A stretch of 64,000 nt of DNA from Octopus vulgaris (Eukaryota): assembly GCA_951406725.2 (NCBI GenBank), contig OX597816.1:26164001-26228000 (forward strand). Direction: 5' to 3'. The notes below the pieces were generated by a model. The model did no database searches. It had not been told where the DNA came from and worked only from the letters and a program-made list of their open reading frames with translations. The position numbers and the translations under genes were made by a program. Below are positions 9,535 through 47,964 of the stretch, in pieces. Position 1 is the first letter of the stretch. Each line of letters opens with the position of its first letter.

Positions 9535-10072
9535 TATTGATGTATTTGGGGATGGTCATGTTGCCAGTTTAGCCGATAAATACACACGCACTATATATTT
9601 GGTATTCATTTGCTCCAGCTTTATTTTATATTAAACGTATTTCGACTGTGAATAAATAAGTAGGTATAAACAAATGAACAAAATAAATAAAAACAAATTA
9701 AACGAACGTATATAAACAGAGTATACTGATAATACAGGCACATTCCCACACACACGCACACTTACTAAACATGGACACACACAGGGGTATACGAATGCGT
9801 AAATAAAGACAAATACAATAGGAATACAAAATGGCTGATCATTTGTAAGGAAAGACACACAAAAGAAATAAGAAAGCAAAGGACCACTGATGAGGTCACA
9901 GAAATGTGACGAAAGAACTCTGGCCGAAAAATGATTTATATAAAATATAGCTGAGGCGTGTGTTTTTATTGGCGAAACTGGCAACATGACCATTCCCAAA
10001 TACAACAATATCAATTTCAACACACGAATTCACATCAAGAATCTGGCAAAGCAAATATATAAACGTAAGTTT
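9535..10072 (+). mobile_element. Penelope-like terminal-repeat fragment with inverted 5' segment, inserted in (TA)n
   Basis: About 9541-9600 is an inverted copy of about 9942-10005; contains the hammerhead at 9884 and ORF start MTIPKYNNINFNTRIH at 9986. Confidence 0.7.
9884..9923 (+). ncRNA. Type I hammerhead ribozyme
   Basis: CCA-CTGATGA-G-GTCACA(GAAA)TGTGAC-GAAA-GAAC-TC-TGG; predicted cleavage after 9920. Confidence 0.85.
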
Positions 10073-10109
10073 ATATATATATATATATATATATATATAT
10101 ATATATATA

Positions 10110-10533
10110 CACTCTTTTACTCTTTTATGTGTTTCAGTCATTTGACTGTGGCCATGCTGGAGCACCGCCTTTAGTCGAGAAAATCGACACCAGGACTTAT
10201 TATTTGTAAGCCTGGTAGTTATTCTATCGCTCTCTTTTTACCGAACCGCTATGTTACGGGAACGTAAACACACCAGCATCTGTTGTCAAGCGATGTTGGT
10301 GGGACAAACACAGCCACACAAACATATACATACATACATGTATATACATATATATATATATATATATATATATATATATATATATATATATATATACGAC
10401 GGGCTTCTTTCTGTTTCCGTCTACCAAATCCACTCACAAGTCTTTGGTCGGCCTGAGGCTATAGTAGAAGACACTTGCTCAAGATGCCACGCAGTGGGAC
10501 TGAACCCGGAATCATGAGGTTCGTAAGCAAGCT
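10110..10533 (-). mobile_element. SINE family A
   Basis: Reverse-complement match to the family consensus. Confidence 0.9.
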
Positions 10534-12716
10534 ATACATATAAATATATATATATATATATATATATATATATATATATATATATATATATATATATATA
10601 TATATATATATATATATATATATATATATATATATATATATATATATATATATATATATAGAGAGAGAGAGAGATGCGTTATTCACACATAAGCAAACGT
10701 TGTTACTTTCATGCTCACATACGCAAAATTTAATGTACATAAATATATACATTTGCTTTTGTTCATTTATTCACAAACACAAATATAATTTATATCACCT
10801 TCAGGCTGATAATGGTTTTGAGATTTTATCAAGTTTCAATAGCCAAGAAGATTGGTGCCTCTTGTCTAAATTTCTGGTGCCATGCTTACATAATTTGTCT
10901 CTGTTGCTAATAACAACGGCTTTTTAGCCTCCGGTTTCGTCTAAGCTTTGCCACGTCTATGCATCTATCTTCATTGTACAATCATCCGCTAGAAAAATTA
11001 TCCTTTGATATATATATTCTTTCATAATTGTTTTATATGCTTGTAAGTACGTGACTGTATATGTCTGCTGACAAATATATATATGTTTATATATATGAAT
11101 ATATATGCGTGTGTAAATGTGTGTGTGTATGCGGATATGTAAGCATGCATTTATGTGTGTATCCTTTTTGTGTCCCAAGGGACAAACAAACAGCGTGAAT
11201 GAGAGAGAAATAGAATACATATGATACTAATAGTTATAATTCTTGTTTCGATGCGCAGAGGTGAGTCTGACGTAGAGGTGGTAGATATGATTACGGTGGG
11301 GATAGTTCTGGGATGCAAAAAATAAGTTTGTGGGTTTTTCTTTCAGTGTGTGTGTGTGTGTGTGTGATTGTGTGTGTGTCTGTGTGTGTGTGTCTGTGTC
11401 TTTATGACAATGTGCAGTATCTACATCAGATGATGTTGTTGGCGTTTAATTTAGCAAATAACCTACATCTTACATGTGGTAAGCATACATGGTCCCAGAC
11501 GTCAAAACATCAACATCAAAACCAAAACCAGGCCGCAAAAAATAACTATTAATTGTAAATTATTAACAGTAGACGGGGTTACATCTGTGTCTATCTATCT
11601 ATCTATCTATCTATCTATCTATCTATCTATCTATCTATCTATCTATCTATTTCTCTCTATCTTTCTCTCTCCCTCTCTCTCTATATATATATTCACGCAC
11701 ATACATATGCATACACACATATGTATATATATACATACACACATATGTATACATATGCATATATATATACTTACATATATATATATATATATATATATAT
11801 ATATATATATATATATATGATTTTATATGGATTGATGTATATATAAATGCATGTATTTCTACAAATGTATCCATGTATGTATATATGTGTATATATATAT
11901 ATATATATATATATGTATTTATATGTTATATATATATATATATATATATATGCATATGTATAAGTATGTATGTATGAGTATATATATATATATATATATA
12001 TATATATATATATATACATATATACATGCATGTATATTTTTATACAGATTGATGTATATAGGAGTGCATGCATTTATACCAATGTATGTATGTATGTATG
12101 TATATATATATATCTGTGACCTGGTAACTGACACAATTTCACTACATCTCAATGTAGCTAGAATGGAATTCTGTCAGTGACCAGGTCGTAGAAGTGGGTT
12201 ATAAAATTTTGACATTACACAATAGACAGTACTATTAAGACCTAAACGAGTACTAAATATAACTGTTGCTGATTGTATGCTTAAATGTCTAAAAATATAA
12301 CATATAACGTGATTATGCAACAAATATGCTTCGCTCAACAAAAGAAATGAAATTGTATCACGTTACAGTCATCAGAATAAAGTAATTTGCGAAAATTGGT
12401 TCGAACTAAAAGCAGGTTAAACGTTCGAGGATTTAGCTACAGGCGAAATTAATTGTGGAATTACATAAAGCCCAGATCCAATGAAACAAATGAGTTAACC
12501 AAGTCATTAACCCAAGGAGAAGAATGGCAATTTACATATATTAAAACCTCCTCCTCCTCCTCATTATCATCATAATCATCATCATGATATATATATATAT
12601 ATATATATATATATATATATATATGAGTATATGTATATATATATATATATATATATATATATATATATATATAGAGAGAGAGAGAGAGAGAGAGAGAGAG
12701 AGGAGAAAATGAGTGA

Positions 12717-13025
12717 AGGCGCAAAGCACAGTAGTTAGAGCATCGGGCTCAAAATCATGAGTTAATGAGTTCGATTCCTGCACCGGGCTATGTATTGTGA
12801 GCTTGAGCAAGCCACTTTATTTCAAATTGCTTCAGTTCATTTAACTGTAGAAATGAGTTGTGATGTAACTGGTGGCAAGCTGTAACAGACTTTGCCTTTC
12901 CCTTAGTTAAAATCAGTGGCATAGAGAGAAGAGGCTGGTATGTTGGTCTTCAATAAACAACTTTGTCCGGACTTGTGCTTCAGAAGGTAAATTTCTAGGT
13001 GAAATCTCATGGATATTCATGACCT
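12717..13025 (+). mobile_element. SINE family B
   Basis: Colinear with 23719-24052. Confidence 0.85.
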
Positions 13026-45214: not shown

Positions 45215-46439
45215 ACCTATCCATTCTTGTTGCTTCTTTCTCGCGTATATATATATATATATATATATATATATATATATATATATATATATATATATAT
45301 ATATATATATATATAAATGTATATATATATATATGCATATATATATATATATATATATATATACATATATATATATATGAATATATTTATATGTCTGTGC
45401 GAGTGTGTGTGTGTGAGAGAGTTATAAATATAGATAGATAGATAGATAGATAGATAGATAGATAGATAGATAGATAGATATGTAAACAGTGTGCGTTCAG
45501 CTGCACTGCAAGAGCTCATATGCATATATATACATATATATATATATATATATAAATATATACGTAAAATAAAATATGTATATATAATATGTAAAAACAT
45601 ACATCTGTCAGTGTCTGTGCTCTGACATATTCAGAATTGAGGTCGGAAGAGAAGGAAAATAACTCGTTAACTTTTATTTATGTTTTATATATATGAATTA
45701 CTTGTGTTTATGCGTGTATAATTCGTGTAAATGGTCTGCGCATATGTGCATGGTTGAGCGTGTAAGCATGGGTTCATATACACACAGACAAGCAGGCATT
45801 TATGCATACAAATGTGTATATGTCTATGTGTATATGTACGTGTATATATATGCATACATAAATACATACATGCATATGTATTCACACATATATGCATATA
45901 TGCACAGATATATATATATATATATATATACATACATACACACATACATATACACATACATATATATACATATATATATATATATATATATATATATATA
46001 TATTTATATGTGTATTCATACATTCATCAGAATGAACGTACATACATAGACGTCTAAATGTTTCTATGAGTTATTTTCGCACATGTCAAAACAACAACTG
46101 CATGGAAAGTCATGACATCGCTTCAGGAGAGAGAGAGAGTGGCGTGATCTGTCTAGCCTCCTCCCGTTGGAATTACTTTATTTTTTCTGCTTTTGCTTCT
46201 CCCTCTGTAGTCGACAATCTCAATTTAACACTCTATTCCGCTACAAATTAACGTAAATCATAGGTACACGTTTGTCGAGTGGTGTGTCTTTATTTCAGTA
46301 GGTAATTTAGTGTAAATCGTCGAGACGAGTAAATAAAAATATCTTTAAACAGGAACTCCATGTCTATTAGAGGTGGGTTTTATATATATATATATATATA
46401 TATATATATATATATATATACACATATATATATATATAT

Positions 46440-46651
46440 CGCCATGTTGATTCGCTAGCTTCTGCACGCATTTTTTTTCTCTCCTTGTTTCTCTCCGTGT
46501 TTCTTTTCTGTGTATATTTCTGTTGAAGAGCGTAGGCTCGAAACGTAAAAGACTTGTTTTATTTATATTCCTGAGCGCCATAATAATACAATTGTTTGTT
46601 TGTATTCCACCTGCCTTCGTCTTTTGTTTATTTTCATAAAGCTTCCCGTTA
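46440..46651 (+). mobile_element. About 200-bp hammerhead-bearing repeat family in (TA)n
   Basis: Near-identical to 28296-28530; relatives at 17690-17872, 33089-33203, 50250-50360, 54870-54985, 19690-19900 and 43245-43425(-). Confidence 0.8.
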
Positions 46652-46876
46652 TATTTATATATATATATATATATATATATATATATATATATATATATAT
46701 ATATATATATTCAACAACTTCTCAAAATGAAATAGTGTACATTTAACACAAAAGAAAACTACCTTTAATAGGTAATATTTACACGCTAGAAGAAGCAGGC
46801 AAAACGACCAAAACCACATTTTAAGAGCAATTTTCGAAGTTAATGAAAAATAGAAACTTTTATCTTGTAAATTTTT

Positions 46877-46949
46877 ACGGTCATACCTAGGTTTCAGATT
46901 ATTTTAGCAAATAGAATAATTTGCTAGGCGATTCCTCATCAGTAACCGT
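46877..46949 (-). ncRNA. Type I hammerhead ribozyme
   Basis: ACGGTTA-CTGATGA-[TAGCAAAT/ATTTGCTA hairpin]-GAAA-CCTAGG-TA-TGACCGT; palindromic stem III ACCTAGGT. Confidence 0.85.
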
Positions 46950-47964
46950 GTATGCATATACATATATATATATATATATATATATATATATATATATATA
47001 TATATAAGAGATAATGGTGTCATTGAGACCCAAAGGTGCCAGGTAATGCTGAATAAGTGCTCTAGAAAGACCATAGTTAAGTTCCAGATTCGGTAATATT
47101 GCCGTCTCCCATTAAGGGATATTATTAATATCCTGGAAACAGCTTTAAGACGTTCTATCTATAAATGCTCTAATATCTAAACAGCCTTGTCTTTTTATCT
47201 TATAACGCAAAAAATTCTTATATATATATATATACGTTTATATATCTATATATACATATATACATATATATATATGTATATTCGTTTATATATATATATA
47301 TATATATATATATATATATATATATATATATATATATATATATATATATATATATATATATATATATATATATATATATATATTTTTTTATCAATATATA
47401 TTTTTATCAAAATATTTTTATCAAAAAATTTCAAGAAAAATTTCAAGAAAAATTTTCTGCAACCAGCGGTCAAGTGAGAAAATAGAAATAGTCACAGACT
47501 ATATAATATATTCAACAAAATATTAAGGAAAGACCCTTACAGGTCATTCGACTCACTTGAAAAGAGCAGCCAAAACTCAAACCGCAAAAATAGTAGTAAT
47601 TCTGAAAGCTAAAGGAGATATTCGATCCTCAGGTTTTTGCTGTAAGATACCTGCTGTGAAATCGTGTGTTGAAACAGATATTGTATTTCGGCATGGTCAT
47701 TCTTCCCCCACCCCCAATAAACACACGAACTATATATTTGTTCTTCTCTCGTTTACTACTGTTTCAATCTTCTTAAAACTTTAACTCATTTCCATTGTCC
47801 GAAAATCCTTCGTCATACATCTGTAACCTTTCTAACGACACTTTTCATATTCGTGTGTGCACCTTGGGCAAGTGTCTTCTGCTATAGCCTCAGGCCGACC
47901 AAAGCCTTGTGAGTGAATTTGGTAAGACGGAGACTGAAAGAAGCCCGGTGTATACATATATATT

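Follow-up and report, generated by a model that had tools for sequence, protein, structure and literature searches.

Putative ends of Penelope-like retroelements retaining the probable start of an open reading frame in Octopus vulgaris

At the 5′ end, Penelope-like elements (PLEs) are described as carrying an inverted copy that is itself 5′-truncated; one end also has a tail of 30–40 bp (Craig et al., PMC8557442). In Pen2a_Av, a Penelope of Adineta vaga, the pseudo-long terminal repeat (pLTR) holds the first 12 amino acids of the open reading frame (ORF), or 22 with the tail, and the insert has an inverted pLTR and a 9-bp target-site duplication (TSD; PMC3846280). In PAc, an AC-rich stem-loop lies close to two sites in the ORF at which the reverse transcriptase (RT) starts, and the tail is the stretch between those sites; insertion in vitro was unaffected by hammerhead mutations, and the cut site coincides with neither the beginning nor the end of any RNA-seq read (PMC11167929). 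Minimal hammerheads of PLEs have an unpaired base ahead of a G-C-closed stem II (PMC4209133). Here we analyse three copies, E1, E2 and E3, in a 64 000-nucleotide stretch of Octopus vulgaris DNA (assembly GCA_951406725.2, contig OX597816.1; hereafter the window), whose anatomy gives good support for their being ends of related PLEs, each consisting of a pLTR plus a tail. The passages of a paper on O. vulgaris repeats that report 31 recently active Penelope-like families do not mention hammerheads (PMC13282606). The literature searched holds no description of the E1–E3 family; Repbase and Dfam lay outside its scope, so the family is possibly catalogued already.

Anatomy of the three copies

The copies share a short peptide, which was found where an earlier note on this DNA had placed it: MTIPKYNNINFNTRIHIKNLAKQI from 9986 on the plus strand (E1), TLPRHNRICFNTRTHIKLLANQI on the minus strand (E2) and MTMPKYNICFNTRFHSRYLT from 47700 on the minus strand (E3). 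The three are mutually homologous (tBLASTn within the window, E-values 1e-7 to 3e-4), as is their DNA (BLASTn; 75% over 85 nt for E1–E3, 77% over 64 nt for E1–E2). The note held that the peptides are better conserved than the surrounding DNA. Against the leaders this is so at the DNA level, with 59–85% identity in the first 60 nt of coding positions versus 27–57% in the leaders (ungapped), but amino acid identities of 17/28, 13/21 and 10/21 fall below the DNA identities over the same stretches (70, 79 and 63%). A single indel, of 3 nt, separates E1–E3 within the first 22 codons. The start codon is absent from E2, where the direct arm reads AGG and the inverted arm ATC, each one base off ATG. 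An abrupt end, also claimed for all three, is seen in E1, in E2 and in a related copy at 28.6 kb, whereas E3 diverges at about codon 22 and meets a stop at codon 24. Shorter inverted copies at 9534–9589 and 15663–15690 and the related palindrome at 28557–28786 had previously been missed.

Table 1. Coordinates of the copies and their parts in the window.
Feature	Position	Strand	Remarks
E1 inverted arm	9534..9880	-	ends at codon 9; homology to direct arm at 9534-9589 (91%), weakly at 9616-9644
E1 type I minimal hammerhead, complete	9881..9925	+	found by descriptor scan; folding z -2.1
E1 leader, 65 nt	9921..9985	+	carries CGTGTGTT at -29
E1 putative ORF start, about 28 codons	9986..10071	+	pLTR part to about 10011, tail 10012-10071
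E2 TSD, downstream copy (TTAATCTGATA)	15336..15346	-	9/5000 background pairs reach 11 bp
E2 direct arm	15347..15552	-	leader and 29 open codons with AGG as codon 1; tail at 15404-15347; resemblance to a hammerhead not significant
E2 peptide, TLPRHNRICFNTRTHIKLLANQI	codon 1 at 15432, T at 15429	-	
E2 inverted arm, without tail	15553..15690	+	ends at codon 9
E2 TSD, upstream copy	15688..15698	-	
E2-family palindromic derivative in (TA)n, 230 bp	28557..28786		
E3 element	47625..47846	-	remnant, leader with TCGTGTGTT at -28, ATG at 47700, 23 open codons, one 3-nt deletion
E3 hammerhead stem II region, decayed homologue	47806..47828	-	CUGANGA core absent; 11/1000 shuffles reach score

E1 runs in the order (TA)n, inverted arm, direct arm, (TA)n, its terminus reading AAAC|GTAAGT (donor-like at 10065–10070) ahead of the second (TA)n; the T-rich rest of its inverted arm may be a 3′ untranslated region (UTR). 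E2 is a palindrome of 286 bp plus an extension. An 11-bp direct repeat encloses the whole E2 unit, which fixes both termini and makes E2 one insertion; the 7-nt direct repeat that bounds E3 is not significant and may be chance (276 of 5000 background pairs have repeats at least as long). Self-comparison within the window revealed inverted arms for E1 and E2 and none for E3; copies were single or inverted only, with no head-to-tail tandem units, and no full-length copy with direct (partial-tandem) pLTRs around an ORF was found there. The palindrome at 28.6 kb is flanked by (TA)n on each side, as is E1. Each of its outer ends corresponds to the last ~30 nt of the tail, the ATG region being absent, and its appearance, that of a miniature inverted-repeat transposable element (MITE), possibly reflects a secondary non-autonomous family. 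It adjoins one copy of a separate dispersed short-end family found beside (TA)n (28400–28530, 46554–46654, 33124–33196, 17796–17858 and 50302–50357; 79–94% identity).

Two end points recur among these arms: a short one at codon 9 (inverted arms of E1 and E2) and a long one at codon 28–29 (direct arms of E1 and E2, both arms of the 28.6-kb copy), leaving a one-arm tail of about 58–60 nt in E1 and E2. Going by its published description, Pen2a_Av likewise has its first codons in the pLTR and extended by the tail (12 then 22 there, about 9 then 28 here) and an insert completed by an inverted pLTR, with a TSD of 8–10 bp against 11 bp here. Its tail is 31 bp rather than about 58, and only for Pen2a_Av is the full ORF known. 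By analogy, this putative placing of the ORF start in the pLTR would fit the Penelope/Poseidon type best.

Each peptide had been thought to lie downstream of a hammerhead or a remnant of one; the motif is intact in E1, decayed in E3 (table 1) and not demonstrable in E2, as all three E2-family arms tested resemble the E1 hammerhead only at chance level (300–748 of 1000 shuffles). A purpose-made descriptor scan gave six hammerhead matches in the window, compared with 0–1 in each of 20 block-shuffled control windows, and just one of the six (9887, plus strand) belongs to E1–E3. The E1 motif lies 65 nt upstream of the ATG and consists of a bulged, 5-bp stem I (9881–9886/9921–9925), the core CTGATGA (9887–9893) followed by an unpaired G, a stem II of 6 bp capped by a GAAA loop (9895–9910) and a 2-bp stem III, with the cut predicted after 9920. 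The unpaired base, G-C-closed stem II and short stem III are traits of the minimal PLE type; the 2-bp stem III and non-palindromic loop suggest, by comparison with PMC4209133, that the putative ribozyme would be weakly active as a monomer. An alternative fold through a downstream GAAA was rejected, stem I being absent. Rfam models gave only a sub-threshold Hammerhead_3 match to E1 (E 3.1); at gathering level no hammerhead was detected in the window, a tRNA being the sole match, and the best 150 of 391 E-value matches were miRNA models driven by microsatellites plus one tRNA.

The five further hammerhead motifs have their cores at 45130 and 54924 (plus strand) and at 46942, 43063 and 55487 (minus strand). 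They are followed by about 35–175 nt and then a microsatellite, (TA)n in four of the five; those at 45130 and 55487 have stem II regions of ~60 nt. They are likely ends of other PLE families.

Coding signal and the search for a parent element

Codon-position bias, the check proposed for the peptide, was present in E1–E2 and absent from both pairs that include E3. Differences between E1 and E2 fall 6/7/12 on codon positions 1/2/3 (n = 25; dN/dS 0.32, binomial p 0.053). By permutation, 17/28 identical amino acids in frame +1 compare with a mean of 12.1 (P 0.004–0.006, or 0.007 without the four invariant codons), and the remaining five frames give P 0.13–0.93; the test distributes changes evenly, so clustered changes bias it towards significance, and 18 frame-by-pair tests were run in all. 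Decay after insertion could have diluted a real coding signal. We regard it as quite likely that the peptide is coding, a likelihood to which an uninterrupted ORF and a first exon both contribute, and it is a likely N-terminus of a parent ORF.

The peptide had also been put forward as a probe for the parent element. As such it failed in the protein collections searched, where only short proteins matched: nine distinct ones of 58–136 aa with mutually unrelated continuations, similarity being lost by residue 26–27 (by 17 in P0007). The only named match is an Octopus bimaculoides protein (a UniRef entry; 86% identity over the peptide). Of the clusters with a Pfam domain, the one closest to its continuation is SWIM (14% of members, score 0.84), which we treat as no more than a lead. 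Another of the nine continues into sequence resembling an abundant SINE-like (short interspersed nuclear element-like) repeat of the window. P0001 was rejected as parent, its continuation being a separate widespread family. The Met at position 1 is internal to the predicted protein in four of the nine matches (P0002, P0004, P0007 and P0008), and thus was not chosen as the protein start there. These proteins are best read as probable false predictions on other genomic copies, in which case they would lend independent support to the long end point.

Profile searches led no further. A three-sequence profile run against longer proteins gave one match among 27 candidates, and a search of 1.84 billion representatives gave nine matches at E-values up to 0.001; these included P0010 (732 aa), which was dropped as a tandem-repeat artefact with no matched stretch. 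Two further searches with a 12-sequence profile (6/7919 and 3/323) returned only proteins already in the profile and are circular as confirmation. Pfam held no match for the peptide and none below E 0.09 for P0001, the ESM Atlas had no usable match for the peptide, and the PDB offered only weak SK-channel matches (E 0.03–0.05), which we take as chance.

Proposed origin and competing explanations

It is fairly probable, in our judgement, that E1–E3 are dead, 5′-truncated insertions of two or three related endonuclease-bearing PLE families, formed as follows. The parent transcript would extend from one unit's 3′ UTR, across the hammerhead and a leader of 65–110 nt, to the ORF of the following unit. 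A nick within AT-rich or (TA)n DNA would prime the element's RT, which would start cDNA inside the ORF instead of at the 3′ terminus of the RNA, favouring two sites (about +26 and about +85); two internal start sites would account for arms ending at codon 9 and codon 28 and for the abrupt stop in every copy. Truncation at the 5′ end would have reduced the copies to pLTR plus tail, and the peptide, as the true N-terminus of the parent protein, would have been kept incidentally. The cis signal between the start sites probably includes a hairpin in which the leader (−29) pairs with the AC-rich FNTR codons (+34 to +41). The present analysis provides the homology, a single intact hammerhead motif, the two end points, the TSD, the complementarity and a partial codon bias; internal RT initiation and the identity of the ORF are taken over from PAc and Pen2a_Av. 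Retention of an ORF start in pLTR plus tail is a known PLE property and the abrupt stop has a published cause. The earlier note's view of these fragments as pLTR tails with the N-terminus of an autonomous PLE ORF is borne out in the pLTR-plus-tail anatomy, whereas the parent ORF was not seen; its suggestion that hammerhead cleavage sets the mRNA 5′ end is unsupported.

Among described systems, PAc/Poseidon_Ac (Anolis carolinensis) shares the hammerhead beside the ORF start, two genomic ends within the ORF, the AC-rich stem-loop and an AT-rich target. It differs in having its ATG within the hammerhead (65–110 nt downstream of it here) and its RT start about 111–118 nt into the ORF (ends at about +26 and +85 here). 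Hydra-clade PLEs, including Hydra-1_Obim, resemble these copies in their hammerhead near the 3′ end, (TA)n preference and occurrence in octopus (PMC8557442), but their N-terminus has KNIP and RWK motifs that the peptide does not match; by eye the peptide, at 28 codons only, is unlike the N-termini of both Hydra-1_Obim and Hydra-1_Ajap. ‘FNTR’ was not found among the text listed from the supplement of that paper, which shows long protein lines in part. Naiads lack a canonical hammerhead, while the E1 motif is complete, and the start and end of Naiad_Obim are unlike E1–E3 by eye. Elsewhere in the window, a 104-aa frame at 44226–44540 (minus strand) looks by eye like the Hydra-1_Obim N-terminus (SFKDIP/SFKNIP and RIRWQAFFFD/RMRWKAFFFD); Pfam gives nothing for it, and it is probably a decayed 5′ part of a Hydra-clade PLE.

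Several results weigh against this account of E1–E3. No long protein with an RT or GIY-YIG domain begins with the peptide in the collections searched, and the only named match runs on into an unrelated family widespread in arthropods and molluscs. Endonuclease-bearing PLEs encode a telomerase-like RT and a GIY-YIG endonuclease in one ORF, and none of the 70 frames scanned, out of 179 candidate frames in the window, contains a PLE-type RT or GIY-YIG domain; the 70 include all 39 near E1–E3 and the other hammerhead elements. Repeats are usually masked and the families may be extinct, so that these domain and protein nulls are weak evidence against a parent. Codon bias is absent in E1–E3 (P 0.39) and E2–E3 (P 0.13), pooling all three gives variable columns of 7/9/10 by codon position (p 0.36), and in TTCAACACACGA all four third positions that do not vary suggest constraint at the nucleotide level. 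The tail of ~58 nt exceeds the published 30–40 nt. Finally, the peptide is missing from all five other hammerhead-bearing ends in the window, and Hydra-clade PLEs end in hammerhead, short UTR and (TA)n with no ORF start (supplement of PMC8557442), Hydra-1_Obim stopping about 40 nt past its hammerhead (PMC8557442).

Under a different explanation, unlikely in our estimate, these are 3′ ends of PLEs or of PLE-derived non-autonomous elements in which the stretch is non-coding. It would be conserved for the binding of its RNA by the RT, through the leader–FNTR hairpin and the tail, and the peptide would be a frame left open by chance in AC-rich sequence. The 12-nt core encoding FNTR is invariant in E1, E2 and E3 at every codon position, third positions included, and a motif complementary to the FNTR codons lies at −28 to −30 in five of five leaders, despite leader identities of 40–57% around it. 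In the direct copies of E1, E2 and E3 the complementarity spans 8, 6 and 9 bp, lengths reached by 98, 272 and 37 of 5000 shuffled leaders; the leaders are homologous, and hence the five are non-independent tests. The stem appears in predicted folds with pair probabilities of 0.78–1.0 in E1 and 0.43–0.61 in E3, and in a shifted register in the E2 direct arm owing to one change; it would enclose the ATG, its 3′ strand starting just past the short end. Absence of bias in two of three pairs, the lack of a long ORF in the databases searched and an antisense frame −1 that is open in all three copies are in keeping with a non-coding origin too. It leaves the frame-specific silent excess in E1–E2, which persists without the core, and the retained ATG to be explained; moreover, the stem has no compensatory change among E1–E3, its invariant pairs are uninformative, and whole-region folding z-scores are ordinary (0.5, 0.35 and −1.38). 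A reasonable position is that the stem is an analogue of the AC-rich stem-loop of PAc, and RNA structure may account for part of the FNTR conservation.

Less probable still, we think, is that the peptide represents the first coding exon, a short one, followed by an intron that begins one base beyond codon 26; the long RT start would lie a few bases inside this intron, a layout in which unspliced predictions could not connect the peptide to an RT. E1 reads AAAC|GTAAGT at exactly that position, the E3 end (AAAC CTGAG) is one change off GTRAG, and K26 is found in 8 of 12 aligned sequences with no conservation beyond. PLEs keep introns, one in Chlamys-3 spanning the boundary of pLTR and body (PMC8557442), and an intron lies in the Penelope promoter region (PMC2377424). 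Yet both of these pLTR introns sit in the 5′ UTR, E2-family ends lack the GT (AAAC GAAAT, and AAAC TAAAT twice), the two strands of the window together contain 27 instances of GTAAGT, and internal RT initiation alone accounts for the stop. A more elaborate version, which we likewise consider doubtful, supposes a cephalopod PLE lineage outside the described clades, with a 26-codon micro-exon in pLTR plus tail and the ATG in the loop of a leader–ORF hairpin that frames both RT start sites. If true, these would lie before the 3′ strand of the hairpin and at the splice donor, and splicing would remove the long one, separating translatable mRNA from the unspliced template for transposition; this would offer a reason for intron retention in PLEs and make the question directly testable.

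An origin outside PLEs altogether, as MITE-like DNA transposons, SINEs, a retrozyme or fragments of a transposon protein of SWIM type, as suggested by the O. bimaculoides gene model, is very improbable: E2 and the 28.6-kb copy are palindromic and the only named match joins the peptide to a SWIM-like region, but a fixed tail makes one arm longer than the other, unlike in terminal inverted repeats, the tandem array that a retrozyme requires is absent, and none of the other eight matches has the SWIM-like continuation, for which reason that gene model is most likely a chimeric prediction. The 28.6-kb copy may none the less have arisen secondarily as a MITE-like derivative. Non-LTR retrozymes do share the type I hammerhead and have been proposed to derive from PLE pLTRs, but they are defined by units repeated head to tail and carrying two or more hammerheads (bioRxiv 10.64898/2026.07.22.740005), whereas the copies here are single or inverted.

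Setting and significance

The window is AT-rich (GC 27–43%), with plentiful microsatellites (6597 of 64 000 bases masked) and many repeat fragments. The SINE-like repeat, ~450 bp with a central microsatellite, has about a dozen copies (for example 3657–4154, 7821–8269, 9182–9480, 10110–10520 and 47855–48628), adjoining E1 on both sides and E3 on its upstream side; we presume it to be akin to common octopus SINEs. A near-perfect inverted repeat of 176 bp at 7223–7398 (a long hairpin with a sub-threshold MIR2670 match) is possibly another MITE-like or PLE-derived palindrome. On the plus strand lie broken pol pieces of an LTR retrotransposon at 950–1834 (RT_RNaseH_2, E 3.6e-10; Integrase_H2C2, E 4e-15), a tRNA-Glu(TTC) gene at 31157–31229 and a transposase fragment of Tc1/mariner type at 58229–58906 (HTH_Tnp_Tc3_2, E 6.5e-12). 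Two further plus-strand frames, 62571–63293 and 49966–50289, have no Pfam match; we take them to resemble the C-terminal part of a LINE (long interspersed nuclear element) reverse transcriptase.

The main import of E1–E3 is for repeat annotation. Fragments of this kind seed false short gene models, nine database proteins and among them one named UniRef entry, and they can be recognised as PLE ends rather than as MITEs or exons. By analogy with PAc, for which the two-start-site signature has been shown biochemically, they would provide an invertebrate case of that signature in which the tail is longer and a specific hairpin can be proposed.

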